This document shows, in pieces, positions 26,146 through 54,549 of a DNA stretch of 64,000 nt (positions within the stretch are counted from its first letter, which is position 1; each line of letters begins with the position of its first letter). Source of the DNA: Candidatus Parcubacteria bacterium (lineage in GTDB: Bacteria; Patescibacteriota; Minisyncoccia; JACPXH01). The notes beneath the pieces are model-generated. The model saw only the letters and a program-made list of their open reading frames with translations, was not told the DNA's origin and made no database searches. Location: contig JACPXH010000007.1 of assembly GCA_016196625.1 (NCBI GenBank), forward strand, positions 150,461 through 214,460, written 5' to 3'. Position numbers and translations under genes: made by a program.

Positions 26146-29100
26146 TTGCGAACTCTAATGCAAAAAATCACGCCATATCTTCTTGCTGGCTTGGTGTCGG
26201 TGGTTTTCGTTTTTGCGTTTGCGCTGACTGGAGCGACGCAGGTCGCAGCGGCGACGAATTGCGCGGCTGTGCCGGGCTATACCCTTTCGACCGCAGCCTT
26301 GTGCACGACGACTACCGTAACTCTCTCCGGCACGACTGCCACCATCACCTCCTCAACCGTGCGTCAGGATGCGTCGGGCACTGAGCAGGGCTTGCCGCCC
26401 TCAAACTGGGGCATTGCGAGCGACATTCGGGTGTTTATTGATGATAGGTATTACTGCGGCAGCTCAACCCACACGGTTAGCTGTTTCGTGGCCAATCTTT
26501 CTGGCGGTCCCCATCAATTCAAAACAATCTGGACGGGTAGCGCATCCAGTCAGAGCATATCCACCACCAACTACGATAGCTTCACGATTGCGCTCCCCAA
26601 CCTGACGGTAAGTTCCATTACTCCTATAGGCACGCCCACCGTAAATCAGTCATTCGCCATTCAAGCGGTCATCACGAATAACGGTACCGCATCGGCAGCA
26701 TCGTCGTGGGCGCAAACCGCAATCGGCGTACAAGGCAGTTCGAACGCTACGATCAGTGGCTTTACCACGCCTGCGCTTGCGGCCGGCAGTTCCTACACGG
26801 CAACATTTTCATACACGCCCGCTATTGCCGGCACATACGCGATCAACGTGTGCGCGGATGTGGGCGGCAGTGTGGCCGAGTCAAATGAAGACCCCTATAC
26901 CGATAACTGTAAAACCGTCCCGGTAACCGTTTCAGCGCCCGCCGTTACCTCCGTGACCGCCGACCTCAAAAGCAACGGCGCGGATGGGCCGCTGACTATC
27001 GGCTACCGTCAGTCAGTGCCGCTCTCTTGGATAAGCACGAACGCGACCGGTTGTTCTATTCTCATACCGGGCCTGAACTCGGTCTCCGGCGGGCCAAGCG
27101 GCTTTATGACTGCTGGACCTCTTGAATCATCCGGGGTAGTTGTGCTCACTTGTACGAACGCGAGTGGCGCAAACGGATCAGACACGCTCACCGTCAACGT
27201 AAGTCCGGCGCCCACGCCTTCAATTTCCAATGTGTTTGCCGCGCCCAGTACCTTCACGCGGGGCGATTATCTTACGATCACGATTGTGGGCGAAGAATTC
27301 GGCGCCACACCCGGCGTGCTCGAAGAGATGACCGGTTATGGCGGCACGGTTAAAAATAGTTATGTCCGCGGCGAGTACAACAGATGGGAGTTGACGTGGA
27401 GCAATACGCAAATCAGCGTACGGATTTTCCCCTCGGTTACGCAAGATTACGCGCTGGGGCCGCGGACGGTTTACGTGCGGGTTGCAAACCAGTTTAATCA
27501 ACGCAGTACCGTGCAACCAGTTACCGCAACCGTAAATCCGGGCTCTACCAGCGCTCTCGCTCCCACCCTGACCGAAGTGTACGTGAACCCACGTCCCGGC
27601 ATCCGCGGGCAAACAGCCACCGCATTTTTCAACGGTGTGCTCAACGCCGACTCCTGCACCTTTCAATATAAGGGTACCGGGGAGGCGGCGTGGGGCAACG
27701 CTACCACTGGCAGTTGCACCACCGGCGTTACCTTCACCGTGCCGGCAGATCTGCCGCGGGGTCTCTATTTGCTTCAGGGTAGGGCCTGTCGGAATGACGG
27801 CACCTGCTCGGAATATCGTCAGATGGTGGGCGAGTGGCAGATCAATCCGTCTCCGACTGAACCGGCCGTAACTTCCGGCCGAGCTGTCATTGACGGATTT
27901 CGCGTCATCACTCCGGACACCCTTTTGATCCCCGCAAGCACGAGCGCCGCTCCCACGACCAATGTTCATTTGACCGCCACATTGCGCCAAGCCTTGACCG
28001 TTTCGCTCTACTATCCATGTCGTGCGGGCTTCAACATTTTGACCGCGGCCAATGTGCAGCTTGCCTGCAATGACGAAACGACCAACACCTTCCCGCTTTC
28101 GAACGACTCGGGCGGGTTTCGGACCGCGGAGCCGATTGTGCTTGTCAGCAACGCCGTGGCCGGCGGCGGCACCATTGAGCTGCGGCTCAACGCCATCGGT
28201 CTCGACGGCGTCAGAGTCTCCCGATCCGTAACGTTCACGTTGGCAGGAGGGACGGCTGCTACGCCAATTCCGTCTCCAATTCCGTCTCCAACCTCGCCCA
28301 CCCCCTCCATCTTCAACACTTTCGCTGCTCCCTCAACCGTGGCCCAGGGCGACTACCTCACGATCACTCTCACCGGAGATAACTTCGGCGCAAACCCCGG
28401 CGTACTTGAAGAGATGACCGGTTACGGCGGCACGGTTAAAAATAGTTATGTCCGCGGCGAGTACAATCGTTGGGATCTCACCTGGACCAACACCCAGATC
28501 GCGTTCCGACTTTACCCGTCAGTCACCCAGACTTACACCACCGGTTCCCACACTCTCTATCTGCGGGTGACGAACTCGTTCAACCGGCAGAGCAATGTGG
28601 TTTCGGTGTCGGCAACTGTGACCGGAGGGACGGCTACCAATTCTCAATCGCAAACCCAAAGCCAAACGCAATCCCAGTCGCAAACGCCACCTCTCCAGAG
28701 TTCCGTGCGGCCGCTGGTCCGGGCGCAAAGCGACACGCGGGTGTTCGCCATTGTCAACAATCAACGGTTCTGGATTCCTGACACCCAGACCTTTGAGGCC
28801 GCGGGGTATCGGTGGAGCGATGTACGAGTGGTGTCAGACGTACAGGTTGGTCAGTACGCTCGGCTGCGCCTGGTGCGCGCGGGGTCTGATTCGGCGGTGT
28901 ATTACATTACGGAATCAGGCTTGAAACGTTTAATTCCCAGCCCGGCCGTGTTCGCGTCATACGGCAACCGCTGGGAGGACGTTGTGTCCATCAGTCAAGT
29001 AGAGTTGGCCGCGTATCAAAGCGTTGCATTCATTCACCGGGGAGATGGGCGAGTGTACAAAATCGAAAACGGCGTTAAGCGTTGGGTGAAAACCGAGGAG

Positions 29101-29193
29101 GCTTTCCGGCGCCTCGGCGGCCGGTGGGACCAGATTGCGCCGGTCAACCAAACCGAGTTTGAGAGCTACCCGCTTGGAGCTGATATCGAGTAG
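26146..29193 (+). CDS. Large secreted/cell-surface protein (1015 aa) with a signal peptide, internally duplicated ~105-aa domains and a (SQ/TQ)n low-complexity tract
   Basis: Hydrophobic N-terminus. Duplicated segment NVFAAPSTFTRGDYLTITIVGEEFGATPGVLEEMTGYGGTVKNSYVRGEYNRWELTW... versus NTFAAPSTVAQGDYLTITLTGDNFGANPGVLEEMTGYGGTVKNSYVRGEYNRWDLTW.... The tract is SQSQTQSQTQSQSQ. Confidence 0.7.
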   Translation: MRTLMQKITPYLLAGLVSVVFVFAFALTGATQVAAATNCAAVPGYTLSTAALCTTTTVTLSGTTATITSSTVRQDASGTEQGLPPSNWGIASDIRVFIDDRYYCGSSTHTVSCFVANLSGGPHQFKTIWTGSASSQSISTTNYDSFTIALPNLTVSSITPIGTPTVNQSFAIQAVITNNGTASAASSWAQTAIGVQGSSNATISGFTTPALAAGSSYTATFSYTPAIAGTYAINVCADVGGSVAESNEDPYTDNCKTVPVTVSAPAVTSVTADLKSNGADGPLTIGYRQSVPLSWISTNATGCSILIPGLNSVSGGPSGFMTAGPLESSGVVVLTCTNASGANGSDTLTVNVSPAPTPSISNVFAAPSTFTRGDYLTITIVGEEFGATPGVLEEMTGYGGTVKNSYVRGEYNRWELTWSNTQISVRIFPSVTQDYALGPRTVYVRVANQFNQRSTVQPVTATVNPGSTSALAPTLTEVYVNPRPGIRGQTATAFFNGVLNADSCTFQYKGTGEAAWGNATTGSCTTGVTFTVPADLPRGLYLLQGRACRNDGTCSEYRQMVGEWQINPSPTEPAVTSGRAVIDGFRVITPDTLLIPASTSAAPTTNVHLTATLRQALTVSLYYPCRAGFNILTAANVQLACNDETTNTFPLSNDSGGFRTAEPIVLVSNAVAGGGTIELRLNAIGLDGVRVSRSVTFTLAGGTAATPIPSPIPSPTSPTPSIFNTFAAPSTVAQGDYLTITLTGDNFGANPGVLEEMTGYGGTVKNSYVRGEYNRWDLTWTNTQIAFRLYPSVTQTYTTGSHTLYLRVTNSFNRQSNVVSVSATVTGGTATNSQSQTQSQTQSQSQTPPLQSSVRPLVRAQSDTRVFAIVNNQRFWIPDTQTFEAAGYRWSDVRVVSDVQVGQYARLRLVRAGSDSAVYYITESGLKRLIPSPAVFASYGNRWEDVVSISQVELAAYQSVAFIHRGDGRVYKIENGVKRWVKTEEAFRRLGGRWDQIAPVNQTEFESYPLGADIE

Positions 29194-29265: not shown

Positions 29266-29661
29266 ATGAACGGAGACGATCTCAAGAAAATCAAGCGAGC
29301 GGTTGGGGAAGTGGTCGAGCCGTACTTTACGGCTATTCAGGCCGACTTCAACCGGATAGACGAGCGATTTGATCGGCTTACGGATGACGTCAAAGATATT
29401 CAGGTTCGGCTGGCTTCCCTGGAGCGGCGAGTTATAGCCATTGAAGATATTCTCACCGAGCACGGTCAACTTCTGCGCAGCCACGATCAACTTCTCAAGA
29501 GCTACGATCGACTTCTGAAAAGTCACGATCGCGAGCTCAAGGCGATTAAAAAAGTGCTCATCGAGATTAAACACAATCAAGACAAGGACCACGGTCGCCT
29601 TGCCGAGCTAGAACATCGGGTGTTCCGTCTTGAGACAAAGGTTTACGGAAGGGTTTCTTAA
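29266..29661 (+). CDS. Hypothetical coiled-coil protein with short tandem repeats
   Basis: Heptad-like repeats HGQLLRSHDQLLKSYDRLLKSHDRELKA, encoded by DNA repeats CACGATCAACTTCT. Confidence 0.45.
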   Translation: MNGDDLKKIKRAVGEVVEPYFTAIQADFNRIDERFDRLTDDVKDIQVRLASLERRVIAIEDILTEHGQLLRSHDQLLKSYDRLLKSHDRELKAIKKVLIEIKHNQDKDHGRLAELEHRVFRLETKVYGRVS

Positions 29662-29713: not shown

Positions 29714-31798
29714 ATGTCCCATCCCGATCTCATCCAATACATCCGCGACATGGTGCGGGAGGGGAGGAGTTGGTCCGAGGTAAAAGACGCGTTGGTCAAA
29801 GAAGGCTGGGCGGACGAGGATATCCGGCACGGCTTGGCCGAATACGCAACGCAGGAAGCGTTTGAGCTGCGCAAAGACGTTTCGAATATCAAATCCGAGT
29901 TCAAGGATCTCGTGCGCGAGTTGAAGCAGAGTATTACTGAAGAACTGCGCGAGCAAGGAGCGTCCGGCGGCGCGGGCGCCGCGGCGCCCGCGCCGCCTCC
30001 GTACCAAACCGTTCCTTCTGGCGCCACCCGGGAGGCGCCCGCACCGCCCCCCTATAGGGGCGAATCCTCGGGCTCCCAGCCGTACCGACCGTCCGCACTA
30101 AAAGCGGAAACCCAGAAACCCTTTGCTTCCCGCGACCTTGAAGCGCGCATCGGCGGCCAGTGGTTTGCGCGCATCGGCATCGTGGCCATGCTCATCGGGT
30201 TTGCCACGTTCTTCGCCTACGCGGTCAACCAAGGGTGGATCAACGAGCCGATGCGCGTGGTGATCGGCGTGGCTTGCGGCGCACTGGCTTTGGTTCTCGG
30301 CGAGATGTGGCGCGAGCGCTACCCCACCTACAGCCAGATTCTCACCGGCGGCGGACTTGCGCTTGAGTATTTCTCTTTTTACGCCGCGTTCAGTTTCTAC
30401 GGCCTCATTCCGTTTCCGGTGGCGTTTCTGATTTTTACGGCGATTACGGCTTCAGGCGGATGGCTGGCGCTACGGGCAAATGCGGTCGGGGTCGCCATCA
30501 TTGCTATTTTGGGCGGATTTTCAACTCCGATTTTCCTTGGCTGGGATAAAAACCAAATCGGCTTATACTTCACGTACTTTGCAATTCTTGATTTGGGGGT
30601 GCTGGGGCTGGCCGCGCTGCGGCCATGGCGGGCACTCAACCTGTTGAGTTTCATTGCCACGCTTGTCTGGATGCTCAGTTGGTACGGCGGGTTTTATGCA
30701 AGCGCGGATCTGCCGCTGTTTATGGCGTTTCTCACGCTTTTCTTTGTAATTTTCACCTTAGCAGGTATTGCCCATCATGTTATCCGGCGCGAGCGCGAAG
30801 AAGGATTTGATCTGGCCTTGCTTTTGCTTTCGGCCGCGTTTTACTTCCTCCTCGGGCATACGGTCTTAAAGCCGGAGTTTGGCGACTTCCTCGGTCTTTT
30901 TGCCGCGGGACTCGCAGGGCTGTATCTGTTTCTCGCGCTGCTTGTGCGCTCGATACATCCTAAAGGAAGCAAGGTTACGTGGACGCTCGTTGCGCTCGCC
31001 ATTGCCTTCCTCACGATTGCAGTCCCGCTGCAATTTGACGGCCGTCCCATTACGCTCGCGTGGGCAGCCGAGGCGGCGGTATTGGTGTTTGCAGGTTTTC
31101 AGGTGGCGAGTTCACGGCTGCGGATCGCAGGGGTGATTTTACTTACGCTCGTCGCGCTGCGGCTGTTTGCCACTGAATACGAAATCGATCTGCAAAATTT
31201 CGTGCCGGTGGCGAACGGCCGCTTCCTCACGTACGCCTTCGCCATTGCGGCAATGTTTGCCGTTGCCTGGCGCTACAAAGTAGCGTGGGCGACAGTGGAC
31301 AAGCAGGAACGGTTCCTTGTGCCTACGCTGGCGCTCGCGGCAAATTTCTTTGCGCTTTACATTTTGAGTGCCGAGGCGATTGCGTATTTCGATAGCGAGA
31401 TTATTCGTTCACATTCACCTTCCCTGTGCACCACGGGCATCCCCCCATACTGTTTATCAACTGCGAAAGCTGATGCGGTTGGCATCCAGAGCGCGAAGAA
31501 CCTCTCGCTCTCCGTCATCTGGGGCTTGTATTCAATCGGCATGCTCGTCTCCGGCATCATCCGGCGGTTCCAGCCGGTGCGGTTGGCAGCGATCGCTCTG
31601 TTCTGGGTTACGATTTTCAAGGTGTTCTTATATAATTCATCGAATCTTGAGACGCCGTACCGCATCGTTGCCTTCATCGGCCTCGGGGCCTTGCTTTTGG
31701 TAACCGCATACTTCTACAATCGCTACAAGGATCGCATCAACGAGTTTATCTTGCACAGGGATTATGCCGGAGTAACCCCATCCGCGTCCTCCCCTTGA
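29714..31798 (+). CDS. Multi-pass membrane protein with an N-terminal ~45-aa cytoplasmic module and a Pro-rich linker
   Basis: N-terminus MSHPDLIQYIRDMVREGRSWSEVKDALVKEGWADEDIRHGLAEY is paralogous to the N-termini of the proteins at 51789 and 53533. More than 10 predicted TM helices. Confidence 0.65.
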   Translation: MSHPDLIQYIRDMVREGRSWSEVKDALVKEGWADEDIRHGLAEYATQEAFELRKDVSNIKSEFKDLVRELKQSITEELREQGASGGAGAAAPAPPPYQTVPSGATREAPAPPPYRGESSGSQPYRPSALKAETQKPFASRDLEARIGGQWFARIGIVAMLIGFATFFAYAVNQGWINEPMRVVIGVACGALALVLGEMWRERYPTYSQILTGGGLALEYFSFYAAFSFYGLIPFPVAFLIFTAITASGGWLALRANAVGVAIIAILGGFSTPIFLGWDKNQIGLYFTYFAILDLGVLGLAALRPWRALNLLSFIATLVWMLSWYGGFYASADLPLFMAFLTLFFVIFTLAGIAHHVIRREREEGFDLALLLLSAAFYFLLGHTVLKPEFGDFLGLFAAGLAGLYLFLALLVRSIHPKGSKVTWTLVALAIAFLTIAVPLQFDGRPITLAWAAEAAVLVFAGFQVASSRLRIAGVILLTLVALRLFATEYEIDLQNFVPVANGRFLTYAFAIAAMFAVAWRYKVAWATVDKQERFLVPTLALAANFFALYILSAEAIAYFDSEIIRSHSPSLCTTGIPPYCLSTAKADAVGIQSAKNLSLSVIWGLYSIGMLVSGIIRRFQPVRLAAIALFWVTIFKVFLYNSSNLETPYRIVAFIGLGALLLVTAYFYNRYKDRINEFILHRDYAGVTPSASSP

Positions 31799-31824
31799 AA
31801 AGTGGAGGGGTCGAGCAAGCCTTT

Positions 31825-32298
31825 ATGTCGCCAAGCAAAGCCCGAGAGACATTTCTGTATTTGCTTATGTTTGTCTCGCTCGCCATAACAGCAATGGCGG
31901 TGGGCGGGGCGTATTTCAATGTTATTGATGCCTATATTCAAGATCCGCTTGACTACGCGGGGCCGTACCGGTTTGAGTCGTTGCGCTGGCAGCTCTCCGC
32001 CATTATCGTGGCTTCCCCCGTGTTTTTATTTGTGACGCGAGCGGTCAGGCGTCTCGTGGCGCGCGAACCGGACCTGCGCCGGTCGGGCATTCGCAAGTGG
32101 ATTACGTATTTGGCGCTCTTCATTGCCGCAGCCGTCATACTGGGAGATTTAATTAACGTGCTCGCGAAGTTTTTCGGGGGAGAGCTCACGCCGCGGTTTA
32201 TATGGAAGTCAATTACCGTGCTCATGGTTTCGGGTTTGGTGTTTGGGTACTACTTTCTTGAAATGCGTCAGGATGATCCTGTAACCTCTAGCGTATAG
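31825..32298 (+). CDS. Small membrane protein (DUF5671-like, tentative)
   Basis: Four predicted TM segments. Start at ATG 31825 (MSPSKARETF); the TTG at 31795 is an alternative. Confidence 0.45.
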   Translation: MSPSKARETFLYLLMFVSLAITAMAVGGAYFNVIDAYIQDPLDYAGPYRFESLRWQLSAIIVASPVFLFVTRAVRRLVAREPDLRRSGIRKWITYLALFIAAAVILGDLINVLAKFFGGELTPRFIWKSITVLMVSGLVFGYYFLEMRQDDPVTSSV

Positions 32299-37832: not shown

Positions 37833-37896
37833 ATTGGCAGTGTGTCAGGGTCAAATTCAAAGAGTACTTAATCGTTCCTGAAGGGCTACCGAAGTT

Positions 37897-40800
37897 TTGG
37901 TTTTCGATCTTCATATGATCCGTATCAAGCGTCCCCCCAAGGGGAAAAAGCGCGACTCGCTCACCAAGCGTCTCTTTGCCGCAGGTGCTGCAGGGGTAAC
38001 CATGTTTACCGGCGGCGTCCTTGGAGTGCGTGCGGCCGGAACAGTCAAGCCGCCCTTCGCGCAGGTGCGGCTGCGCACGGATCGCGTTTCGGGTGCAGGG
38101 CGGACGCCGGGTGAGGCTGGCGCGGGTACGAAAATTTCTACAGAGGAGGAAGCGCGCATCAAGGCTGAAACCGGTCGCTTCTTGGGCGAACTGCGCAAAG
38201 TAGCAGGGGAGACTGACAGCCAGAGTTTCTTTGCCCGGGTGCTGAACATCTCTCCGGCCGAAGCCGGGTCAGACCTCAATGCTGCGATTCAGGATTTGTA
38301 TAACTCCGGCAATTTGACCCAGGCCGTGCAGAGCGTGCTGGCCAGCGGAGCATATACCCCCGATCAGGCAGCTGCCGCCCTTCGAGAAGCTGAAACAGCG
38401 GGCGTCATCCCTGCGGGAACGACGCTTGATATCGCCGTCAACCTCGGCGCAACGCCCGAGCAGGCGGCTGCGTACGCCCAGCCCTCCTACGTGCCATCAT
38501 CTGAGGCGGATGTCTACGTTCCGCCGCCTGCAGCTGCGGTGCTTCCCGCAGCACCCGTTGCCCCGATTATCCCGCCGCCGGCTGTGGAGTCCGGACCGCC
38601 GGTTTTACCGTCCGTGCCCGCCGCGGCGCGGACCCCCGAAGTGCCACCGCTTCCACCGCCGGTCATCCGCATTGATGAAGAGAGAGGCATCGGGCATGTG
38701 GCCATGCCCGCGGCGCCGGTCGTGCCGGTTGCCCGCGAGGAGCCGACCCCGACGCCTGAACGTACGGTGCAAACCGAAGGCGGGACGTTTATCGTGACGC
38801 CAGGAGGCGCGGTGTTAGATGCAAACCGGAATCCAACCCCCTACTCCGTTGATGCAGGCGGACAAGTGAGTTATCAGGGCACGCCGGTTGGTCGGCTCGA
38901 ATTCCAGCAGCCCGGTATTGAGGAGATGCCTCGAGAAGTCTTTATCCCTACTCCACCACCAGCGCCACCGGTCCAAGCTCCAGGACCCGTCATTATCGTC
39001 CCGCCGGGCGAAAGCATAGTCGTCCCGGAGGGCGAGAGCAGATTTGTGTTAACGCCGGACATCAAGCAGGCTATCCAGGACATCTACCAGAACGAGGGCC
39101 TTGATTCACTCACCAAAGCAGTGGGCGTTCAGATCAACAAGGGCGTGGTGAGTCCGGCCGATGCGGCCCAAGCGCTGCAAGCTGCTGGCATTCCTGTTGC
39201 AGACATTGCCTACATTGCCCGAAACCTCGGGGCCACGCCCGAGCAGATCGCGGCGCTGGTGCCGTCAGCTCCGCCTCCGCCAGCTAAACTGGAAGAGCCG
39301 ACGCTTCCTCCGCCGTCCGCTGCCCCGCTTCCCAGAGGCGCCGAACCCTCCGCACCGCCGGTAGAGATCGGCCCGCCCGTCTGGCAGATTACCCATCCCA
39401 CAGTCCCGGGCCTCACTGTTGACGTTGACGCCGATGGCAACTTCCGTCTGCCTGTTGATTCTGGACTGGGCGAGTTCTCGGGCGCCTTCGGCCAAGTGAA
39501 TAAAGGTACGCTCACCTATACAGTGCGTAGCACCAGCGGCACCGAACAAAGTGGTGATCTGCGGGCTGAAGGTTGGCTCATTGCCGCCGTGACTCCCGCC
39601 TCGCCGGCCAAGCCAGCTGCGCCAGCTCCGGCCCTTCCAACCCCTGCCCCAGTCTTTACCCTCCACATTGGGGATAAAACTTTTCAGATCGACCCCGAGA
39701 CCTTAATCGTCACCAAACCAGAAAGCGACCCTAATCAGTACGTGCTCTATCCAGCTGGTACACCTGGTCAGTACATCATTACAGTGAATGGAGTCTCTAC
39801 CTTTCGGTTAGACACCGCCACCGGCAACCTCACCCAGTTCACTCCCGCTGGCGAGACCAAACCCATTGGGCGTTTTACGCCGGGTGGCGCCGCTGGTCCT
39901 GGTAATACTTTTACGTTTACCCCGAATCCCCCTGCCACTACCACCCCGACATCAACCTCGCCTGTATCATTTCCCGGCGCAACGCCAACGACGACCGTTC
40001 CCGTCATACCCAGACCAGTTCCCCCGGGCGTGATCGGACCCAGTCAACCGCACGAGCTATGGACGAACGTCGTCATTGATAACCAGCGCTATAACCTCTA
40101 TCAAGACGGTGCCGTCAATGCCGTTGATGCGGCGGGCGGAGAAGTCGCGACGCCGTATGTCATTCACTACAACGAAAACGCTCAGAAGTATGAACTCTGG
40201 CGTGCTGCCAATCACGGTGAAACGGTATTTGCGATTCTCAACCCGAGCGGTCAGCTCGAGCAAACTTTCCATCTTTTTTTCAGCCCGGGTCCCTTCGGTA
40301 CCACCCTTCGGGTCAACGATCGTCCCTACCGGATCAATGCGGATGGCACGGTGCTGAATCCGCCCGGCGACACTCAGCGGTACTTTATGGATGTACGCGG
40401 GAACATCCATCTGAACGATCAATACGGTCCCTTCCTCTACCTTATTCTTGTGGACGGTACCGTCCGCGATGCTCAACATCGAACGGTTGGACGAGTAGAA
40501 CCCAGCGGTACTTTTGTTCCGACACCGGGATCGGTTGGCGCGCCTGTACCGGCCCTTCCAACCCCTGCCCCAGTCTTTACCCTCCACATTGGGGATAAAA
40601 CTTTTCAGATCGACCCCGAGACCTTAATCGTCACCAAACCAGAAAGCGACCCTAATCAATATATGCTGTATCCAGCCGGCACACCTGGTCAGTACATCAT
40701 TACAGTGAATGGGGTCTCTACCTTTCGGTTAGACACCACCAACGGCAACCTCACCCAGTTCACCCCAGCTGGTGAGACCAAACCCATTGGGCGCTTCACG

Positions 40801-43800
40801 CCCGATGGCGCCGTGGGTCCGGGCACTACTTTCACGTTTACCCCGAGCCCCGTCGCTACCACCACGCCAACGTCGACCGCGCCGATCTCTCCTGCGTCCA
40901 CTCCCGCGCAGCCAGCTGCCGGGCCTGCCACCGTTCCCCCGGCTGCAGAAGCCGCACCTTCAGTTCCTGCCGCTACCCCCGCTCTCCCCGAGGTGCGCGT
41001 GCGTATCAACGACGCGATCTACCGGATCATGCCCGACGGCACGGTGGTGAGCCCGCCGTCTGACCCGAACACCTACTCGGTGACCCGCAACCCTGACGGC
41101 ACCGCTGCGATCAGCCGCGAAGGGCAGGTGATGTATACGGTCAACGCCCAAGGCGAAGTCCGCACTCCCGACAACCAGACAGTGGGCCAGTTTGATGTGC
41201 CCAAGGCTGAAGTCGTAACCGACTACACCGCCGGCCGAGTTGACTACTACCTGCGTAAAGCCGAGAAAGTCGGCCAAACTGATGCCGCTACGATTCGGGA
41301 GCTCGCGGACAGTGGCGTCAGTCCCACCGTGATTGCGGAGCGTGCTCTTAAAGAGTGGGGCGGAGATGCGCGGCGGGTCGCGGTGGCGGCAGCGGAAGCC
41401 GGTGCTGCGCCTCACCTGATTGCCGAGGTTTTGAAAACGAAAGAATTGAAGGTGCAAAATCCAGACGGCACGAGTCGAACCGTGGACGCTTTTACCTTGG
41501 CTTTGGAGCAAGCAGTGGGGCAGGTAGCCGCGGTGCCGGAATCAAACCAAAGGCTGCAGGGGATGGGTTCGATTGCCGATTTTCTGCGCCGCGCTGGCAT
41601 CTCGGCCCAAGAAGCCAGAGATCGGCTCAAGGCCGCTGGTTTCACTGACGATCCCACGTCCATCCTGAGCGCTGTTGGTTACAGCGCCGAGGGGCTGGCC
41701 ACCACCTTCCCCGTAACTCCGACCCAAATTCGGGCCGTCAATGTGGACGGCACGTGGCTCGCGCTCTCGCCCGATGGGACGGTCTACATTCCGCAGGCTG
41801 GCAGCGCGGCTGAGCTCAAAGTGATTGACGGTGAGACCCGGATCCTGTTCAAGGACCGCACCGGGCGCATCGTACCGCTCCCCATAGCCCGGATCGAGCA
41901 GGTTTCAGACGTAGACCTCCTGCGTTTGGCGCAAGCCAAGTTTCAGGCCCAGGGGTTGACCCGGCCTCAAGCCAATGAGCGGATTTTTCCCCTGGCGGTT
42001 GCTGCCGGTTGGAGCGATCCCGGCCGGGTTATTCGGGCTGCGCTGGAAGCCGGCTTTTCTCCGACAGACATTGTGAGCGGGCTGGCCAGCATTGACAGCG
42101 CTCGCCGCGAGAACAATCAAGAGAGCCATTATCTGGAAGAGGGGATCATGGCGGCGCTCGATGCCGCGCGAAGTCCTGAAGCGCGGCAGGCGACTGCGGA
42201 TACGATCATCGCGGCCCTGCGCGAATCCGACCTCGGTCGCGAGCGGCTCGATGAGCTTATCCAGTACCTCGCCCCGCGGCTCAACGTGCCGGAAAGTCAG
42301 CTTCGCGAGCAGTTGGGGGTTAATCAGCCTTTGTATAAAGCGGCGTTTCGTCTCGAACTGGACCTACCTCGTTATCTTCCAGAATCGCTGCGGCAATCCC
42401 AGAAGGTATTCACTGGAAGATCGCTTCGGGTTATAAGTCAAGTCCCCATACACGAATACGCCGCCACGTTGACTTCGGTTTCCACTGGTCAGCAAACAGC
42501 GCCTGCTGTTACGCGCAAAAGTTCGCACGTCATTAAAATCGCCATTCCGGCAGAACTCAGGGCTGATCAATATCAGCTTACCATTACAATTGATGGTCAG
42601 GCGCAAACATTTCCCATAGAAGTGGAGCGCCCACTCCAAAAGGCCCAAGCGCCCGTGGAGGTTGTGCCCTTGACGTCAGTCGAACAGGCTGCGATTGCGT
42701 TCAGGACCACTCTGTGCACGAATTGCGCATCTGAAGGAGTGTTTAGCGGAGATCCCAATGACGCGAATAAACTCATTCATATCAGCAATACCAGAGATTT
42801 GGTGCGATCAACTGACGGCGGTAGGTCTTGGCACGCGTTGTCGATCGATAACGCCGCACAGTATCCGCGCGCCCAGGTCTTATATGTTGGCGATCCCAAA
42901 GTAGTGAGTTTACCCGATGGTTCATTTATAATCACCAGCCTCGGTAGCGATCATAATAAGAATTTTACTTTAGGCGGATTGATATACCGAGGCACCTACA
43001 CGGGCGGGCTTAACGCCACCTTTTTTCAAGACATCCCTTCAAATTTGCCGGCGAACCAAGATATCGTTGTGGATAGACCAATTTTGGCAGTCGATCAGAG
43101 AAACTCTGCCGTATATATTGCCGTCAATGGCGCCTGGTTTGGCGAAAGAGGAGAATCCGACTTCGAACATGCAATCTACTTCTCTCAGGACGGCGGTCAA
43201 ACATTTAAGAAGGGCAGGATCGGTCATGGACTCGCAATCCACTCGATGACAGTTGGTGCCGACGGGACGCTCTACGCCGCTCGTCTCGGCGAGCCGCATG
43301 AACTGTTCCGCTTTTCTTCTCTCGACCCGGTGCGGTATGAAGTGCTACCGTTACCGGGCCGTCATCAGACCTGGGAGGGTTCGGTAAGAATATCGACCAC
43401 CAGCCGACGTGCCTGGGTTGGCTACGAAGGTCCGGAAGTCATCGCCGATACTAGCCCAACAAGTCCTCATCAAGGGCGGTTGTATGCGGTGTGGTCGCAG
43501 TCCGAGCGGGTCGTTGATGATCAAAACTTTGAGTATAAGCACTATGGGTTTAACCATGACGTATTTGTCAGTTATTCCGACGATCGAGGCGTTAGTTGGT
43601 CTCCGCCAGCGAAGGTGAACGACGATATCGGATCCGGCGATCAAGTATTCCCGTCAGCCCGACTTGACACGAACGGTGCTCTTCACGTTGCCTTCTTCGA
43701 TCACCGGAATAATCAGAGTGACGCAGTGTTCGACGTGTACTATGCGAAGTCCACCGACGGTGTGAATTTTTCCAAGAATCTTAGGTTAAACGAGGAGCCG

Positions 43801-46800
43801 ATCCCAAACGAGTATGGCGGACGGTTCCTTGGCGACTACATAGATATGGTCATGCCATATCCGGATCGTGTCTATGTCGCATATCCAGACGCGCCACTGT
43901 TTGCCAATGGTAAACGTTCAACCATGGCAACGGCCGTGAAGTTTGTGGAGATTTCCCAGGCGGCGCTTGCGCCACTCATGCCGTCGAGGGGGGCTTTCAG
44001 CCTTGATCGTTGGCGCACAGCAGGAGAACGCATAGAGACACTCCATTCGCTTCTTGTATCAGGGTGGACGCCCGCAGAAATCATCCGAGCCCTTGCCGCG
44101 GTAGACGCATCTGCCAAGGCCGCAGGCCGCGAGACTCATTACCTCGAAGAGGGGATCATGGCGGCACTGGAAGCCGCGCCAAACCCAGAAGCGCGGCAGG
44201 CGACGGCGGATACGATCATCGCGGCTCTCGGCGAAGCGGGGTTGAGCCGGGAGCAGACGCAAGAGTTGATTCGGAATCTTGCCCCGCGGCTCAACATGAC
44301 CGAAGAACAGCTGCGTAGTGCATTGGGGATCGGCCAGCTTGCGCGTCAAACCTCTCGACTCACGCGACAAATGACCCGTCAGACTCGCCCTACCGTCCCG
44401 CGCGCGACACTCGTCAAAGTAGATGAGCCGGAGTTTGCCAAGCAAGAGTTGGTGTTGCCGCCCACACTGTTGCCCGCGCCAAACTCGCGCGATGTTCAGG
44501 GCTTTTTAGGGTCAGCTTCAAGCGAGGTGGCTTTCCAGCTTGTTTCACTCATTCGCGACCGGTTCCAGCTTGGGGCAAGCGCGTCGCGCCGCGGTTCGGT
44601 TGAACTGGGCGACGAGGTTACGATTACTCTCCAAGTCAAAGGCCAAGATGTTCCGCCCGACAAATTAGTTACGTTCGACGCCCTCGTGCCTTCAAAGTTC
44701 CGGTACGTGTCCGGGTCCTTAGTGGTCAACAATGTGCCATCGTCTGATCCGGAATTCATCCTCCGCACACCCTTCGCCACCGTCGTCGACGAAGAAACGC
44801 AGGTCCTCCGGCTTGAGCACGGGGTCTGGTCTTACGGAAACACCACGCGGACGTATCGGTTCCGAATGCGCGCTGATACTATCGGCCGGCCCGGCAATTT
44901 GGACGTGAAGGCGTATCTGGACGTTGGTCCGCAGTTGGCCCAGATTGCCGGGGTGGGTCCTTTCACCACGAGCGTGCGCACGAGCGGTCCGCGGCGAGAA
45001 GCCCAGCAGACAACGGAGCGCAACGACGAATTCTCCGGTTATGCCTTTGATCAAACGTTCTCCGGCGGCCGGACGCTGGGCGAAGCTCCGCTGCCCGGGC
45101 GGGCGGGCGAGTTGGTGCCGGGTGAAGCGAATCAGTTTATGCCCGCGCAGGCGATTGAACTTTCGCCGCACGAACGCAACACCATTTCGGTTCGCTATCA
45201 TTTTACGAAACGCTCGCCGGATGCCGCCAATACCCTGCGGCTCAAATACACCGTCGAACTGCCCGGAGAGGTCGAATACCTGTGGCGGTCAGCCCGAATT
45301 GACGGGGCGTTGATTGACACCGAGCCTCTCCGGACACTCCCCGAAGAGCGTACGCCGGCCGGGACGCGACTTGTTACGATAGTGGATCGAGAGACGCCGG
45401 TTGACGAACGGCCGCACGAACTTTCGTTTCAAATTTTTACCGCGGCTGCGCCAGAAACCCAGGCGCGCGCCCCTTTGGTGACGCAGCTGTGGGTTAACGA
45501 CAAGCTGGTCCGAAAGGATCGCTGGGAGCCGATTATCATCCGGGCAGCACAGCCCGCGCCGCCGCGAGACGCCGCGCCGGCTCCGGGCGCCCCTTCGGCG
45601 CCGCCCATATCTGAACCGCCCTCTCCGCCCACCAACTGGGAGCCGCGGTACGTCAGGTTCGACTCAAGCCTTGAGTTTTCCCGGCGCGAGGTGCGGGCTG
45701 GTGAGCGGGTTGACATTACGGCGCGGCTCGAGCGGATCGATTCCGGAGGCCCCATTGAGAATTTTCAATACCTTTTGGAGCTGTCTCCGGGATTACGATT
45801 CGTCGCGGATCAGGGCGTGTCAGTTGATTCTACGCAGCGCCTCGAGCCCGAGGTTTCCGAACGGAACGGCATCCAGCGAGTACGGGTTCGCATGCGGTTT
45901 CCGGCCGGAAGTACAAGGGCTACAGGGGATGTATCAGCTGGGTTCGGGGATCGGCCGACCACGTCAATCCGTTTTACCGCGCAGGCCGCGGCGGATGTAT
46001 CGCCGGGCGAGAAACTTTTGGTGGGTAAGTTTTCCGGCGACGGGTTGCAGCTTGGGCTTGACGCCGCGAATGTCTTGGTTCGCGCGCCTGAAGTCCAGCC
46101 TCGCTTTACCGGCGAGATGTTCACGATTCCTGCGGCCGAGGCGCGGCCGGGAGAAGCACTGGCGGTACAAATCCGACTCTTTCGTACTGATGCGGCGGGT
46201 CGGGTTGGAGATGTCGTTTATGAGCTGGAAGTGCCGGCTGGATTTGAGTATGTTACCGAGTCAGGCGGAGCATCAATTGATGGTCGGTCTCTTGCGGTCA
46301 CGGTGGTGTCTCGGACCGACGGCGCGCAGGTGGTGCGGACCGATTCGTTCTTTTCTCCCGGCGGCAACAATTCCCAGGCTATTACCGTGTTCCTGCGTGC
46401 GAAGTCAGATGTTCCCGCTGGCGAGAAAACCTTTGTGGGTCGGATTTCGGTCAGAAACCGTCAGGTCCTCGAACAGCGCACGAGCGTTCAGGTGCCGGAG
46501 CTGGCAACGGTTCGGATTGACCCGTTCCTGTTCTTCTATGGAAGAGCGACGGTGGGCGATGAGTTTACTGTCTATGCCGATCTCGGTCGTCGCGATACCG
46601 GCGGGCCGATCCCGCAGGTAGATTATCGTCTCCAACTGCCTCGCGGATTCGAATTTCTCCCCAACAGGTCCGATGTGTACTTTTGGGATACGGGCCGCTC
46701 CCAACCGCTCAACGCGGGCGTCTCGGACGGGGTCGTTACGGCCACAATCGCAAACTTTCCCGCCGGGCCGGGGGGGCGCACGATTCGATTTCGACTGCGC

Positions 46801-49311: not shown

Positions 49312-49878
49312 ATGCCTATGAGCCTCACCTGGATTTTTAGCGTCGCGGCAGCGCTGGTCGTTGTTTGGTTTATCCTAGCCTATAACAGTTTGGTCCGGCG
49401 TCGGACACGGGTGGACGAAGGTTGGGCCGACATTGATGTTCAGTTAAAACGGCGCTACGACCTCATTCCGAATTTGGTCGAGACCGTGAAGGGTTACGCG
49501 GCTCACGAGTCTCAAGTTTTTGAGCGGGTTACGTCGGCGCGGGCCGCGGCCATGGGAGCGCAAAGCCCGCAGCAAAAGGCCGCGGCCGAAGGCATGCTGG
49601 CCGGAGCCCTGAAGAGTTTGTTTGCCGTGGCTGAGGCTTATCCCCAATTGCGCGCGGCAGAAAACTTTACGCGCTTGCAGCAAGACCTCGCAGATACCGA
49701 AGACAAAATCCAGGCCTCGCGGCGCTTTTATAACGGCGTCGTGCGCGACTACAACATTGCAACCCAAGTTTTCCCCACAAGTATCGTGGCGGGGCTGTTC
49801 GGTTTCACCAAGCGCGAATTCTTCGAGATTGAAGAAGAGCGCGCTGAAGAGCGCTCGCCGGTGAAAGTTTCGTTCTGA
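49312..49878 (+). CDS. lemA: LemA-family membrane protein
   Basis: N-terminal TM helix, then YNSLVRRRTRVDEGWADIDVQLKRRYDLIPNLVETVKGYAAHE, typical of LemA. Confidence 0.8.
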   Translation: MPMSLTWIFSVAAALVVVWFILAYNSLVRRRTRVDEGWADIDVQLKRRYDLIPNLVETVKGYAAHESQVFERVTSARAAAMGAQSPQQKAAAEGMLAGALKSLFAVAEAYPQLRAAENFTRLQQDLADTEDKIQASRRFYNGVVRDYNIATQVFPTSIVAGLFGFTKREFFEIEEERAEERSPVKVSF

Positions 49879-50001
49879 CAGATGGGAGGCGGGTGAGCGC
49901 ATTATTTTCATCCCGGTAGATGCCCCGCCCGGGGTAAGCCTAATATAAGCGAGTATAAGCGCAGCGCCAGGGTTCGCCTCGCCGAGTTGACCTTCGCCCC
50001 C

Positions 50002-50031
50002 GCGCTACAATGTATCGATACATTGTAGCGC
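50002..50031. repeat. Perfect 30-bp palindrome GCGCTACAATGTATCGATACATTGTAGCGC (family copy 2), 18 bp upstream of the TrpR-like gene
   Basis: Exact symmetry. Same 28-bp core as copies 1 and 3, with different but still complementary flanks. Confidence 0.9.
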
Positions 50032-50048
50032 ATAGACTTCATGCGATT

Positions 50049-50513
50049 ATGCCACAGATATCCAGGTTCAAATTGAGCGCCCGGGCCGAGCAAGAGCTAT
50101 CCGAAACATTCCTGGAAAGCTTGGTACTGATTCGTGATAAAGAATTTGCTCGGCAGGTGGTGGCTGATCTTTTAACCCCAACCGAGAAAGTCATGTTGGG
50201 CAAACGGATTCTGATCGCAGTTCTCTTGCAGGAAGGGTACAGTTACCGAGATGTTGTGAGGTCGTTGAAGGTGGCACCGGGTACGGTCAACAACATTCGC
50301 CTTACGCTCGCGCGGTCAGGCGCGGGATTTAAGGGTTTGGTCGGCTTACTTGGGGGCTCTCGTGTCGCCCAACGAGAGCGGTATCGCCGCGAAGATCGTC
50401 GAGAGTTGATCGCGAATAAGATCTATCAGATCATCGACGCCTTGCGGTTGCCGGTGAAAGGGTCGAAGACCGATATGGTGCGGTGGCGTAAAGCTTTGGA
50501 TAAATTGGCGTAA
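50049..50513 (+). CDS. TrpR-like (YerC/YecD family) helix-turn-helix protein
   Basis: LESLVLIRDKEFARQVVADLLTPTEKVMLGKRILIAVLLQEGYSYRDVVRSLKVAPGTVNNIRLTL aligns with the B. subtilis YerC pattern (..QGYTY..I....GAS.ATISRV). Start chosen at ATG 50049, because the upstream in-frame codons are translation of the palindrome. Confidence 0.65.
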   Translation: MPQISRFKLSARAEQELSETFLESLVLIRDKEFARQVVADLLTPTEKVMLGKRILIAVLLQEGYSYRDVVRSLKVAPGTVNNIRLTLARSGAGFKGLVGLLGGSRVAQRERYRREDRRELIANKIYQIIDALRLPVKGSKTDMVRWRKALDKLA

Positions 50514-50524
50514 TGAGACGAGTC

Positions 50525-50560
50525 CGACCGCTACAATGTATCGATACATTGTAGCGGTCG
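50525..50560. repeat. Perfect 36-bp palindrome CGACCGCTACAATGTATCGATACATTGTAGCGGTCG (family copy 3), 12 bp downstream of the TrpR-like gene
   Basis: Exact symmetry with the identical 28-bp core. Confidence 0.9.
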
Positions 50561-50642
50561 TTGAAACACGGGGTCTTGCCTGCATAAGTTCAGATACATT
50601 TTACATTTGGCACTCTCGTCTTCTGTGTGGTAAAGTAATGGC

Positions 50643-51788: not shown

Positions 51789-53474
51789 TTGGATCCGGCC
51801 TTACTTTCTTACATTCTCGAGGCGCGCGCAGCGGGGCTCACCGATGACCAGATCGTCGAAGAGCTACAACGCGCAGGCTGGGACGAAACTGCCGTCAGGG
51901 AAGCAGTCGGCGCTTCGGAGTATCAGTCCTTTACCGGGCCTCCGGCGCTCTACACTCCCCGGCCCGAGAATCAGCTTGTGCGCCTCTTTCACAACGCCCG
52001 CCGCAGCCTTGGCTTCAAGATGGGCGTTGCTGTTTTGGGTCTTGCTGCCATTGGCGCAGGTGCGTATGCTGGCTGGCGCTATTACGATTCGCTTCCGGCC
52101 AAGGCCTTGGCAGACATGCCGCGCAAAATGGCTGATCTCAAGAGTGCCTCCTACCGGGCGGAAGTCAGAGTTCGGCTTGGTCCTTCCAGTAAAAAGTCCG
52201 CTGTCTTGAACGAGACAGACGTTCGGGTGGCGTTGGCTCAAGTGGAGCCAAATGCGGTTCAGGTTTTGCCTAAAGGAATCGAGAATGCCCAAATCGAGTG
52301 GCGGGTGAGCGGAGCATACGCCACCCGGGCTGGGGCGCCGAGCGACTTTTCGGCGCTCCTTGATTTCAACCTTGAGATGGGTCGGGAAACGATTGCGGTG
52401 ACCATTGAACTTCGGCAGGTGGAGGGCACGTTTTATTTGAGGCTCGTTAAGTTTCCCACTGAGCTATTGGGAGGGTTTTCGTCAGACGACTTGAGCCGCT
52501 ACCTCAACCAGTGGTACTCGTTCAAGATCGAAAGCCTCAAGAAGTATCTGCCCGATTTTGAACGCGAAAGCGTGAACGCGAATCTCAATCTAGACCAAGA
52601 GCAAAAAATCAGAGCGCTCGTGGCGAAAGCCAATCTGTACCACATTCAGTCTGTAACCCGCAACGAAAAAGTTGAGGGTGCGGGCGTGTACCGTTACCTC
52701 GTAAATCTGCTTACGGAAAACTTTATCACCCTCGTGCGTGAGGCTTCGGCCGTGCTCAACGAGCGGGCCCTTACGCCGGAGGCGGAAGCCGGATTGCGCA
52801 ACGTTCTCGGGCAGTTCGCCCAGGCCAAGGTGCAGTTGTGGGTTGGCAAGGACGATCACCTGCTGCGCCGGTCGCATATCACGATTGACGATCTTGGCGT
52901 GGGCGGGTATTCCCTGCCAGCTGAAATAACCCTTGAACTTTCCGACTTCAACCGGGCTGTCGTTACCGCCCCCGAAGGCGCTCTGCCGCTGGAAAAGGTG
53001 ATTGAGGACGCACTCAATGCTTCTCGTATCAAGTCTCGCGATGCGCGCCGTCTGGCCGATATGCGCCAGATTCAGCTGGCGCTCGAACTGTTTGCCGACA
53101 ATCACCGGCAAGCCTACCCTCCAGACATCTATGCTCTTACCCCCTGCGGCCGCGCCAGCGCTTGCGGCCTTGCTTCGCCCGATGCCTGCGGCAGCACGTC
53201 GTGCATCGCTGTGGTGCCGGTTGATCCGTTGGATGGCGGGCGGTACGTGTATAATCCACACCTGACCCGCCGCACGATTGATGCGTATCACCTCGGTACA
53301 AGCCTGGAAGATCCAGCCAGAGCAGAGCTGCAAAGCGATCGCGACTGCAATTCGGCCACCGGCGAAAATTGTCCCTTTCCTTCAGGCTGGGATAAACTGA
53401 AGGTCTTCAACGGCTCTGACCGCCAGGGCTGTTTAGGCGAGGCTGGCCGCGCGTGCTACGATCTGACACCCTGA
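51789..53474 (+). CDS. Membrane-anchored protein with the shared N-terminal module, one TM helix and a large extracytoplasmic domain
   Basis: TTG start. N-terminus MDPALLSYILEARAAGLTDDQIVEELQRAGWDETAVREAVG. TM helix LGFKMGVAVLGLAAIGAGAYAGW. C-terminal pseudopilin-like segment SRDARRLADMRQIQLALELFADNHRQAYP. Confidence 0.65.
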   Translation: MDPALLSYILEARAAGLTDDQIVEELQRAGWDETAVREAVGASEYQSFTGPPALYTPRPENQLVRLFHNARRSLGFKMGVAVLGLAAIGAGAYAGWRYYDSLPAKALADMPRKMADLKSASYRAEVRVRLGPSSKKSAVLNETDVRVALAQVEPNAVQVLPKGIENAQIEWRVSGAYATRAGAPSDFSALLDFNLEMGRETIAVTIELRQVEGTFYLRLVKFPTELLGGFSSDDLSRYLNQWYSFKIESLKKYLPDFERESVNANLNLDQEQKIRALVAKANLYHIQSVTRNEKVEGAGVYRYLVNLLTENFITLVREASAVLNERALTPEAEAGLRNVLGQFAQAKVQLWVGKDDHLLRRSHITIDDLGVGGYSLPAEITLELSDFNRAVVTAPEGALPLEKVIEDALNASRIKSRDARRLADMRQIQLALELFADNHRQAYPPDIYALTPCGRASACGLASPDACGSTSCIAVVPVDPLDGGRYVYNPHLTRRTIDAYHLGTSLEDPARAELQSDRDCNSATGENCPFPSGWDKLKVFNGSDRQGCLGEAGRACYDLTP

Positions 53475-53532: not shown

Positions 53533-54549
53533 ATGGACCCAACTCTAGAATCTTATATCCGTGAAGCCCGCGCGGCAGGCAAATCCGAAGCTCAAATTCG
53601 GACCGAACTGTATGAGCAAGGCTGGCCCGAGCATGTGGCTGACGAAGCCCTCACCGGCAGGGCAGCGAGCAGCCAAACGGGCGAACTGAAGCCTTTTGGA
53701 GAATTATTTACCCAAACGCGCCGTAGCTACGGGTACTTATTTCGTATTTTCTGGCCGGTGTTCGCGCTGCTTTTTGTTTTGCAGGTGGTCCCCTCGTTCT
53801 TGCCGGGTGGCGCGTCGGCCGCGGTCGTGCTTCAAGGCGCGGTTTGGCTTGCGGCGTTGGTGTTAACAATGCTTTTGCCCATCGCCATGATTTTGGCGCT
53901 TGATCAGCGCGAGCGCGCCAACCCGACCCCGAATTTGGTTGGGCTCTGGCGCGAGGCACGCTCGAAATTCTGGGGGTTTGTGTGGGTGGGGATGGTATCT
54001 ACGCTGGTGGTCATGGGGGGATTTGTGGCGCTGGTCGTGCCCGGGCTCGTGCTTTCTATCCAGAACTTTTTCGCAAGTTATATCTACGTGTTGGAGGGGC
54101 GCCGGGGGCTTGCGGCGGTGGAAACGAGTCGGCAGATGGTGCGAGGGTTGGGCTGGCCGGTGTTCGGACGTCTTTTCCTGATGGGACTTATGGCTATGGC
54201 GGTGTTTTTAGTGGTGGTTGTCATCACCGTGCTTCTGGCTATTCCCGCCTTCATTCATATTACGCCCGGCTCGGCCCCGTATCCCTCTCCGGAGCCGAAG
54301 CTTACGCCCATGCAGGAAGCGGCGGTGAACGGCCTCCAAGGGTTAGCGAACCTGTTTCTGTTTCCCGTTTTTGCCGCCTTTCCGTACTGGCTCTACCGTG
54401 AAGTGCGGCGATTGCGCGGCGCGCCCGAGGTACAACAGCCCTCGCAGAGTACCAAGGTGTTTTTGGGTTTGGGCATCGCGGGGGTGGCGGTGTTTTTGGC
54501 GGCCTTCCTGTCTGTTATTGCCTTGGCTATCCGGAAATTTATAGGATAG
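53533..54549 (+). CDS. Multi-pass membrane protein with the shared N-terminal module
   Basis: N-terminus MDPTLESYIREARAAGKSEAQIRTELYEQGWPEHVADEALTG, then about 6 predicted TM helices. Confidence 0.65.
   Translation: MDPTLESYIREARAAGKSEAQIRTELYEQGWPEHVADEALTGRAASSQTGELKPFGELFTQTRRSYGYLFRIFWPVFALLFVLQVVPSFLPGGASAAVVLQGAVWLAALVLTMLLPIAMILALDQRERANPTPNLVGLWREARSKFWGFVWVGMVSTLVVMGGFVALVVPGLVLSIQNFFASYIYVLEGRRGLAAVETSRQMVRGLGWPVFGRLFLMGLMAMAVFLVVVVITVLLAIPAFIHITPGSAPYPSPEPKLTPMQEAAVNGLQGLANLFLFPVFAAFPYWLYREVRRLRGAPEVQQPSQSTKVFLGLGIAGVAVFLAAFLSVIALAIRKFIG

Follow-up and report, generated by a model that had tools for sequence, protein, structure and literature searches.

The window analysed here, a 64,000-nucleotide stretch of a Candidatus Parcubacteria metagenome-assembled genome (MAG), encodes three otherwise different membrane proteins that share a homologous N-terminal module of about 42 amino acids, and protein sequence comparisons indicate that this module represents a juxtamembrane domain of three helices, RecX-like, uncurated, and widespread in Candidate Phyla Radiation (CPR) bacteria and DPANN archaea. 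The presence of a common N-terminal module of about 45 residues in three open reading frames (ORFs) had been proposed from the DNA letters (hereafter the original prediction), and it was borne out by an independent profile. The first copy, m1 (MSHPDLIQYIRDMVREGRSWSEVKDALVKEGWADEDIRHGLAEY; 29714..29845, + strand), starts with an ATG at 29714 and forms the N-terminus of a DUF2339 protein; the second, m2 (M/L DPALLSYILEARAAGLTDDQIVEELQRAGWDETAVREAVG; 51789..51911, + strand), starts with a TTG at 51789 and opens a 561-residue protein; and the third, m3 (MDPTLESYIREARAAGKSEAQIRTELYEQGWPEHVADEALTG; 53533..53658, + strand), starts with an ATG at 53533 and opens a 338-residue protein. Each copy begins at the earliest possible start codon of its own ORF, and the NCBI gene calls agree for the 694-residue (m1) and 338-residue products.

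Pairwise phmmer comparison against the six-frame ORFs of the window related m2 to m3 clearly (47% identity, E 2e-7), and gave m1 only 30% identity to m3 (E 0.016) and 20% identity to m2 (E 0.9-1.2). As these E-values are marginal, the homology of m1 is not acceptable from pairwise comparison alone, and an independent profile was therefore built from 107 copies from other organisms, with the window sequences removed, and the window was searched again. All three copies were recovered, m3 with 55.4 bits (E 2.8e-16), m2 with 44.3 bits (E 8.1e-13), and m1, the most divergent of the three, with 31.6 bits (E 7.5e-9). No fourth copy was found among all window ORFs, the next-best of which had an E-value of 2.1. 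The three copies are thus homologous. Their coding DNA has diverged at synonymous sites, so the similarity reflects conserved protein sequence and a recent duplication as the source of the copies is ruled out. The residues characteristic of the family (L5, Y8, G16, I22, L26, G30, and W31) are present in all three, the only exception being a valine at position 22 of m1. The residue pattern quoted in the original prediction is likewise shared, with several deviations in m1 (SHP in place of DP, V in place of I, and D in place of E).

AlphaFold2, run on a 110-sequence alignment, predicted three helices at positions 3-14, 19-29, and 33-41 with a mean predicted local distance difference test (pLDDT) score of 84.8, and a single-sequence structure model gave the same three helices. 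The module, which had been expected to be small and helical, is accordingly modelled as an autonomous three-helix-bundle domain. The consensus of 237 aligned copies reads L..Y[IV]......G.[ST]..[QE]I[KR]..L...GW.E..[IV]D.A[LF], with G16 and L26 conserved at 97%, G30 at 95%, W31 at 92%, L5 at 91%, Y8 at 88%, and I22 at 87%. Strong conservation is confined to hydrophobic residues with the spacing of a single helix face, the glycine of each inter-helix loop, and the tryptophan that adjoins the second of these glycines; no conserved polar cluster suggestive of catalysis or of a small-molecule ligand was seen among the aligned copies. The window copies are acidic (net charge -4, -6, and -5), and the charge of the family is variable and centred near zero (mean -0.4). 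In PDB sequence searches with profiles of 3 and 110 sequences, no natural solved relative was matched at significance (RecX E 0.11, EF-Ts 0.12), and the best matches were de novo designed three-helix miniproteins and helical repeats (8skx, 8vl3, and 5cwb; E 1.3e-5 to 2e-4).

An exhaustive profile search of 1.84 billion representative proteins returned 1,473 proteins with E<=1e-3, of which 50 had E<=1e-10. Architectures were assigned to the 148 best matches, with two window proteins excluded, under a ranking by summed score that favours multi-copy proteins. In 87 of the 148, one to eight copies follow the last transmembrane (TM) helix, and 53 of these 87 have a signal-peptide-like N-terminus; 21 resemble the window proteins in carrying one to five copies N-terminal to the first TM helix; in six, copies flank a TM helix on both sides; 31 lack any predicted TM helix; and three had no copy at the domain threshold used. 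Most commonly, these top-scoring matches are surface proteins whose C-terminal tail bears two to three copies in tandem. Modules of the N-terminal type lie at Met1, and the last copy of the C-terminal type stops a median of 3 residues short of the C-terminus; the median gaps between module and TM helix are 24 and 35 residues. Eight copies follow each other with a 44-45-residue period in one protein, and a few apparently complete soluble proteins consist of modules only (P0134, P0152, P0173, P0179, and P0269). The bodies joined to the module include DUF2339, DUF5671, DUF7847-like, and LPG_synthase_TM. Several module-bearing proteins may be encoded by one genome, as shown by the three in the window and by two per locus in L004 and L007.

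The C-terminal-type proteins are often giant, signal-peptide-bearing surface proteins, the N-terminal parts of which contain MopE, NEW3, LamG, PKD, beta-helix, S8 protease/subtilase, and PGF-pre-PGF domains. These domains are typically extracellular, which places the C-terminal module tail in the cytoplasm. The side of the adjacent TM helix that bears the module was the one richer in lysine plus arginine by 13 to 5 among N-terminal and by 59 to 14 among C-terminal placements. In the three window proteins, the first TM helix lies at residue 154, 74, and 65, respectively, with three lysines plus arginines before each and one, two, and zero after, and no signal peptide was found in any of them. 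Because of the missing signal peptide, the charge bias toward the module side, and the same bias family-wide, the module is most probably cytoplasmic in the window proteins, as had been supposed. The domain does not appear to be strictly cytoplasmic family-wide, as judged from the predicted architecture of four related proteins (P0194, P0217, P0238, and P0246), in which a signal peptide and a Cys-rich ectodomain are followed by a module, a TM helix, a basic stretch, and a second module. A motif 'VYG.EE.P' lies between the first module and the TM helix of these P0194-like proteins (for example within residues 888-1013 of P0194).

A further subfamily (P0144, P0179, P0184, P0190, and P0269) is distinguished by a conserved linker after helix 3, in which …[LIV][LIVMF].[EDN]VH.… is followed, after about 10 residues, by L..Y[IV]. 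The resulting repeat unit of about 55-60 residues hints that neighbouring modules in this subfamily may pack against each other.

The taxonomic picture rests on a few labelled cases (7 of 30 looked-up proteins) and on neighbouring genes, so the proportions are uncertain. The named C-terminal-type matches are all from Woesearchaeota (P0124, P0133, P0143, and P0151). The Nanoarchaeia protein P0147 carries five N-terminal copies before an LPG_synthase_TM-like body, a Woesearchaeota protein (L002) carries one copy after a TM helix, and the locus L004 is assigned to an archaeon because its neighbouring genes encode Cdc6 and aIF5B. The bacterial cases are the window itself, its relative labelled Saccharibacteria (L001 and L010), and P0266, beside which a protein with a weak match to PG_binding_1 is encoded. 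The single N-terminal copy is found in the three window proteins, in other CPR bacteria, and in some Nanoarchaeia. On these assignments the family spans CPR bacteria and, mainly, DPANN archaea (Woesearchaeota and Nanoarchaeia), and with 1,473 representative proteins in both groups it does not correspond to the lineage-specific domain that the original prediction had suggested looking for.

Other searches were less productive. A GTDB scan with degenerate patterns yielded only two loci, a scan of viral contigs found no module, and a word-indexed protein search with a 47-residue alignment gave no match, the query being short with too few shared 5-mers. Full-length searches found only close orthologues of the 338-residue protein or DUF2339 homologues without the module. 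Two archaeal loci with C-terminal-type proteins, L003 (3536-4878; P0128) and L007 (5674-7150; P0130), have the same genes downstream, namely one for an HVO_2718-like HTH_3 protein, encoded on the opposite strand, and one for an HTH_20 regulator; this may reflect conserved synteny or simply close relatedness.

The module family has no Pfam or NCBIfam model of its own; on the window copies, every model of either collection stayed below its cut-off, the more recent precomputed Pfam annotations name no family for the module, and no well-known ubiquitous domain, the trivial explanation against which the shared segment was to be checked, matched it at significance. HTH_78 was considered and rejected as the module family, as it appears weakly on one relative and is absent from the records of eight other module-bearing relatives. 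Literature searches on DPANN giant proteins, on RecX-like three-helix domains and membranes, on Woesearchaeota together with RecX, and on PF26555, HTH_78, and PF25231 returned no description of the module.

The closest sequence family is RecX, for which the Pfam models RecX_HTH1 (PF21982), RecX_HTH2 (PF02631), and RecX_HTH3 (PF21981) and COG2137 were compared. In the window, m3 scores 22.7 bits with RecX_HTH1 and 21.5 bits with RecX_HTH2, both below the cut-off of 26, and m1 and m2 have no RecX match. Across 110 single modules, RecX_HTH1 was matched by 12 and RecX_HTH2 by 9 at E<=0.01, which makes them the most recurrent Pfam matches where about one false match would be expected over all families. 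Multi-copy relatives exceed the cut-off of 26 as summed scores (P0124 with 48 bits, P0126 with 41.6, and P0155 with 27.7). In NCBIfam, too, RecX is the weak match that recurs most. Its models there align colinearly over three tandem modules, as in P0142 (residues 49-180 on model positions 77-208) and P0137 (216-346 on 19-147), and with the equivalog models for RecX, related module proteins reach 17-33 bits against cut-offs of 146-351. In the reverse direction, the module profile lands on repeat 2 of the E. coli, Xanthomonas, and Lactobacillus RecX proteins with about 10 bits each, the latter two being partial sequences taken from HMMER alignment printouts. We conclude from these matches that the module is distantly related to the RecX repeat, or that this repeat is at the least its closest sequence analogue. 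UBA-like domains are a weaker second candidate: UBA/TS-N (PF00627) was matched by 3 of the 110 modules at E<=0.01 (best E 2.4e-4), and m2 reaches 14.1 bits against a gathering threshold of 22.4.

The bodies of the three window proteins are unrelated to each other in type, and the original description of a protein with 10 or more TM helices, a single-pass protein with a large ectodomain, and a protein with six TM helices agrees with about 15 hydrophobic segments, one TM helix followed by about 470 residues, and five to six TM helices, respectively. Protein 1 (694 residues; 29714..31798, + strand) consists of the module, a coiled-coil and Pro-rich linker, and a DUF2339 (PF10101) body with about 15 TM helices or hydrophobic segments, which scores 279.7 bits against a gathering threshold of 33.6. 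The module is not part of DUF2339, since only three full-length relatives with 83-100% identity (P0004-P0006) carry it among 120 DUF2339 homologues. Between the module and the first TM helix (residues 45-153; window 29846-30175), protein 1 has a stretch predicted to be coiled-coil-like (ELRKDVSNIKSEFKDLVRELKQSITEELRE) and, after it, a low-complexity linker rich in Ala and Pro that contains PPPY twice (APAPPPYQ... and APAPPPYR...). The next gene (31795..32298, + strand) encodes a DUF5671 membrane protein (102.8 bits) without the module and has a 4-base overlap with the DUF2339 stop, an arrangement suggestive of an operon; a direct fusion of the module to a DUF5671 body occurs in another organism (P0201). 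The DUF2339 gene is closely preceded (29266-29661, + strand) by one for a 131-residue coiled-coil protein with repeated HDQLLKSYDRLLKSHDRELK-type heptads, the Pfam matches of which are weak coiled-coil ones only (DUF7310, CdvA-like). Before this coiled-coil gene lies one (26146-29193, + strand) for a 1,015-residue putative surface protein with a CARDB domain and SQTQ and PSPI low-complexity runs, in which a segment of about 70 residues (…FAAPSTFTRGDYLTITIVGEEFGATPGVLEEMTGYGGTVKNSYVRGEYNRWELTWSNTQI…) occurs twice, almost identically, near residues 365 and 735.

Protein 2 (561 residues; 51789..53474, + strand) carries the module, one TM helix (residues 74-92), and a C-terminal part of about 470 residues, which is presumably outside the cell and in which no Pfam family was found; the precomputed Pfam record of the protein is empty. 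Its orthologue P0254 has the same N-terminal module. The C-terminal 125 or so residues (window 53100-53474) contain SRIKSRDARRLADMRQIQLALELFADNHRQAYP…DPLDGGRYVY and have no Pfam match; we take them to resemble the pseudopilin-like domains of CPR proteins. Protein 3 (338 residues; 53533..54549, + strand) combines the module with a body of five to six TM helices that is weakly similar to DUF7847 and GPDPase_memb, DUF7847 being the only family listed on it in newer precomputed Pfam annotations. The module is retained in the orthologues P0182 and P0185, and P0222, the body of which is related to that of protein 3, has a module at both ends. A gene pair for LemA (203.9 bits) and HtpX/Peptidase_M48 (49312-51542, + strand) immediately precedes protein 2, and the close relative L010 shows the same gene order (LemA, HtpX, protein 2, protein 3); in the more distant relative L012, the protein 3 orthologue adjoins other genes. 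The genes inspected beside the three module genes encode the coiled-coil protein, DUF5671, LemA, HtpX, DM13, and DnaG; recA was not among them, and no sigma factor gene was seen adjacent to the module genes. A stop-free frame of 3,743 codons (37882-49110, + strand) apparently encodes a giant protein, in which no module was found (best domain E 18).

The function that we favour for the module, at about even chances, is that of a protein–protein interaction or scaffold unit, mostly cytoplasmic and juxtamembrane. The common interaction put forward in the original prediction would be plausible. Such a role is proposed because the module occurs in tandem arrays, makes up soluble proteins by itself, is carried by several proteins per genome, and has been shuffled onto many different bodies. 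In the window proteins, the modules would lie in the cytoplasm, where they could contact other module copies, soluble all-module proteins, or a shared cytoplasmic partner, and would thereby provide a common handle on otherwise unrelated membrane proteins for their clustering or coupling. The module would not be catalytic, and nucleic acid binding is unlikely in the window.

Several points weigh against this proposal. The function is deduced from architecture and analogy, and the TM helices and topologies come from a crude hydropathy script and not from a trained predictor. Surface residues of the module are poorly conserved, which fits a purely structural role as well. Designed proteins being the best PDB matches implies that the sequence signal is largely generic fold grammar and that the similarity to RecX is possibly in part convergent, and a Foldseek search of the PDB with two models returned nothing at E<=0.001. 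The P0194-type architecture places one copy outside the cell, so a partner confined to the cytoplasm could not account for all copies.

The alternative that survives best, although we regard it as distinctly less probable than an interaction unit, is a passive structural cap, that is, a partner-free, fast-folding, stable mini-domain at the extreme terminus beside a TM helix, which would fix the topology with the N-terminus inside or act as a stopper against the pull-out of the single-pass anchors of large surface proteins. Conservation limited to fold-determining residues, the idealised designed three-helix miniproteins as the best PDB sequence matches, the position of the modules at the very ends of proteins and close to the TM helix, and the outer-face copy of some proteins, which suits a role independent of a partner, are all consistent with a cap. 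Copy number also tends to be higher in the largest proteins, averaging 4.1 where at least 2000 residues precede the first module against 2.4-2.7 in smaller ones, but this link is weak (rho 0.21, p 0.06) and biased by the summed-score ranking. Soluble proteins composed of modules only, however, need neither an anchor nor a topology signal, and multi-pass proteins such as the DUF2339 protein with its roughly 15 TM segments need no stopper.

A functional role like that of RecX or of helix-turn-helix (HTH) domains, in which the module would bind DNA or a RecA/RadA-type filament for membrane tethering or the regulation of recombination, seems improbable. RecX is the closest sequence family, one two-module protein carries the JGI label 'SOS response regulatory protein OraA/RecX', and HTH domains are among the weak structural neighbours; nevertheless, the window copies are acidic and the family is on average near neutral, the RecX scores in the window all lie below curated cut-offs, the window copies are single and not in three repeats, the inspected neighbours are LemA, HtpX, DnaG, DUF5671, and the coiled-coil protein and not recA, and at least one copy is extracellular in some proteins. 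Even less credence can be given to a UBA-like domain whose ligand would be a ubiquitin-like or another small protein modifier. The three-helix bundle, the Gly-aromatic first loop that recalls the UBA 'MGF' loop, the weak Pfam UBA matches, the EF-Ts N-terminal domain at E 0.1, and the UBA domains of p47 and HHR23A among the non-significant Foldseek matches point in this direction, but all scores fall below their cut-offs, UBA was matched less often than RecX_HTH, and no ubiquitin-like system was seen in the examined parts of the window. Chance or compositional resemblance of amphipathic N-termini without a common origin, which only the marginal pairwise values of m1 would favour, is refuted by the independent-profile E-values of all three copies with nothing else in the window, by the 1,473 database relatives, and by the near-invariant G16, L26, G30, and W31.

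CPR bacteria and DPANN archaea encode many unannotated membrane and surface proteins, which are thought to mediate host attachment. A broader extension of the interaction proposal, which is unlikely in its full form, is that a domain derived from the RecX repeat serves an inside–outside coupling system common to ultra-small episymbionts. The C-terminal arrays would then be solenoid-like cytoplasmic tails, through which giant host-contact surface proteins would be linked to a polymer or scaffold inside the cell, perhaps a filament of the RecA/RadA fold or of the cytoskeleton, or a lattice of soluble all-module proteins; the single copies in the window would connect DUF2339, DUF7847-like, and single-pass proteins to this network; and the distribution would have arisen by gene transfer between CPR and DPANN organisms. 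If the sharing of the module is indeed due to gene transfer, it would add to the evidence of exchange between both ultra-small groups. For curators, the family calls for a new domain model, since no fewer than 1,473 clusters at the 50% identity level now lack an annotation or, occasionally, carry a wrong RecX label, and the module could serve as a topology marker for hundreds of giant proteins. For experimenters, it offers a small, easily expressed bait for links between surface proteins and the cell interior. Should the module prove to be a structural cap only, the gain would be an improvement in annotation and little more.

Among known systems, RecX shares the most with the module. RecX is a soluble, basic protein of about 150-280 residues that has exactly three repeats, is usually encoded beside recA, and caps or inhibits RecA filaments. 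Both the RecX repeat and the module are three-helix units of about 40-45 residues in which helix 2 is preceded by a Gly-x-[GST] turn and followed by a glycine, both tend to occur in two to three tandem copies, and the sequence pattern is colinear between E. coli RecX and YIREARAAGKSEAQIRTELYEQGWPEHVADEAL in m3. In contrast to RecX, module copies are single or multiple, fused to membrane proteins, and often acidic, and they carry a near-invariant GW that is absent from the RecX sequences aligned here. The soluble architecture of three consecutive repeats was not found in the window proteins, each of which has one copy followed by TM helices, nor generally in their relatives, which have one to eight copies and are mostly TM-anchored. 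The module is therefore not RecX, given that the window copies are single, membrane-fused, acidic, and without an adjacent recA.

The UBA and EF-Ts N-terminal domains resemble the module in size, in the three-helix bundle, in the Gly-aromatic loop after helix 1, and in their frequent terminal accessory placement; they differ in that no sequence or structure match is significant and that neither the GW motif nor the L..Y[IV] of helix 1 is a UBA feature. The three-helix bundle of the AlphaFold2 model is common to many unrelated families and so does not establish membership. The designed three-helix miniproteins and helical repeat proteins (8skx, 8vl3, and 5cwb) share a near-ideal three-helix sequence grammar with the module (for example, VEELLRRGYSEEDIRRYLKKQGIDDREVDRAI), but they are unrelated to it by descent; the likeness arose by convergence and carries no information on function. 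An anti-sigma factor or a membrane-tethered HTH regulator, each with a helical N-terminal domain in the cytoplasm, a TM helix, and an external sensor, was considered and rejected on charge, size, and gene context. An anti-sigma domain has about 80 residues, often with HxxxCxxC, and a DNA-binding HTH would be basic, whereas the module has 42, no Cys/His motif, a charge of -4 to -6, and no significant Pfam anti-sigma or HTH match. In its mode of use, the module resembles small cytoplasmic N-terminal modules of bacterial membrane proteins such as zinc_ribbon_2/DZR and GYF_2, which are likewise autonomous domains of about 40-60 residues and, within a lineage, form the cytoplasmic terminus of many single- and multi-pass proteins that are otherwise unrelated; the module differs from them in being all-helical without metal ligands, in its range across CPR and DPANN organisms, and in its long C-terminal tandem arrays.

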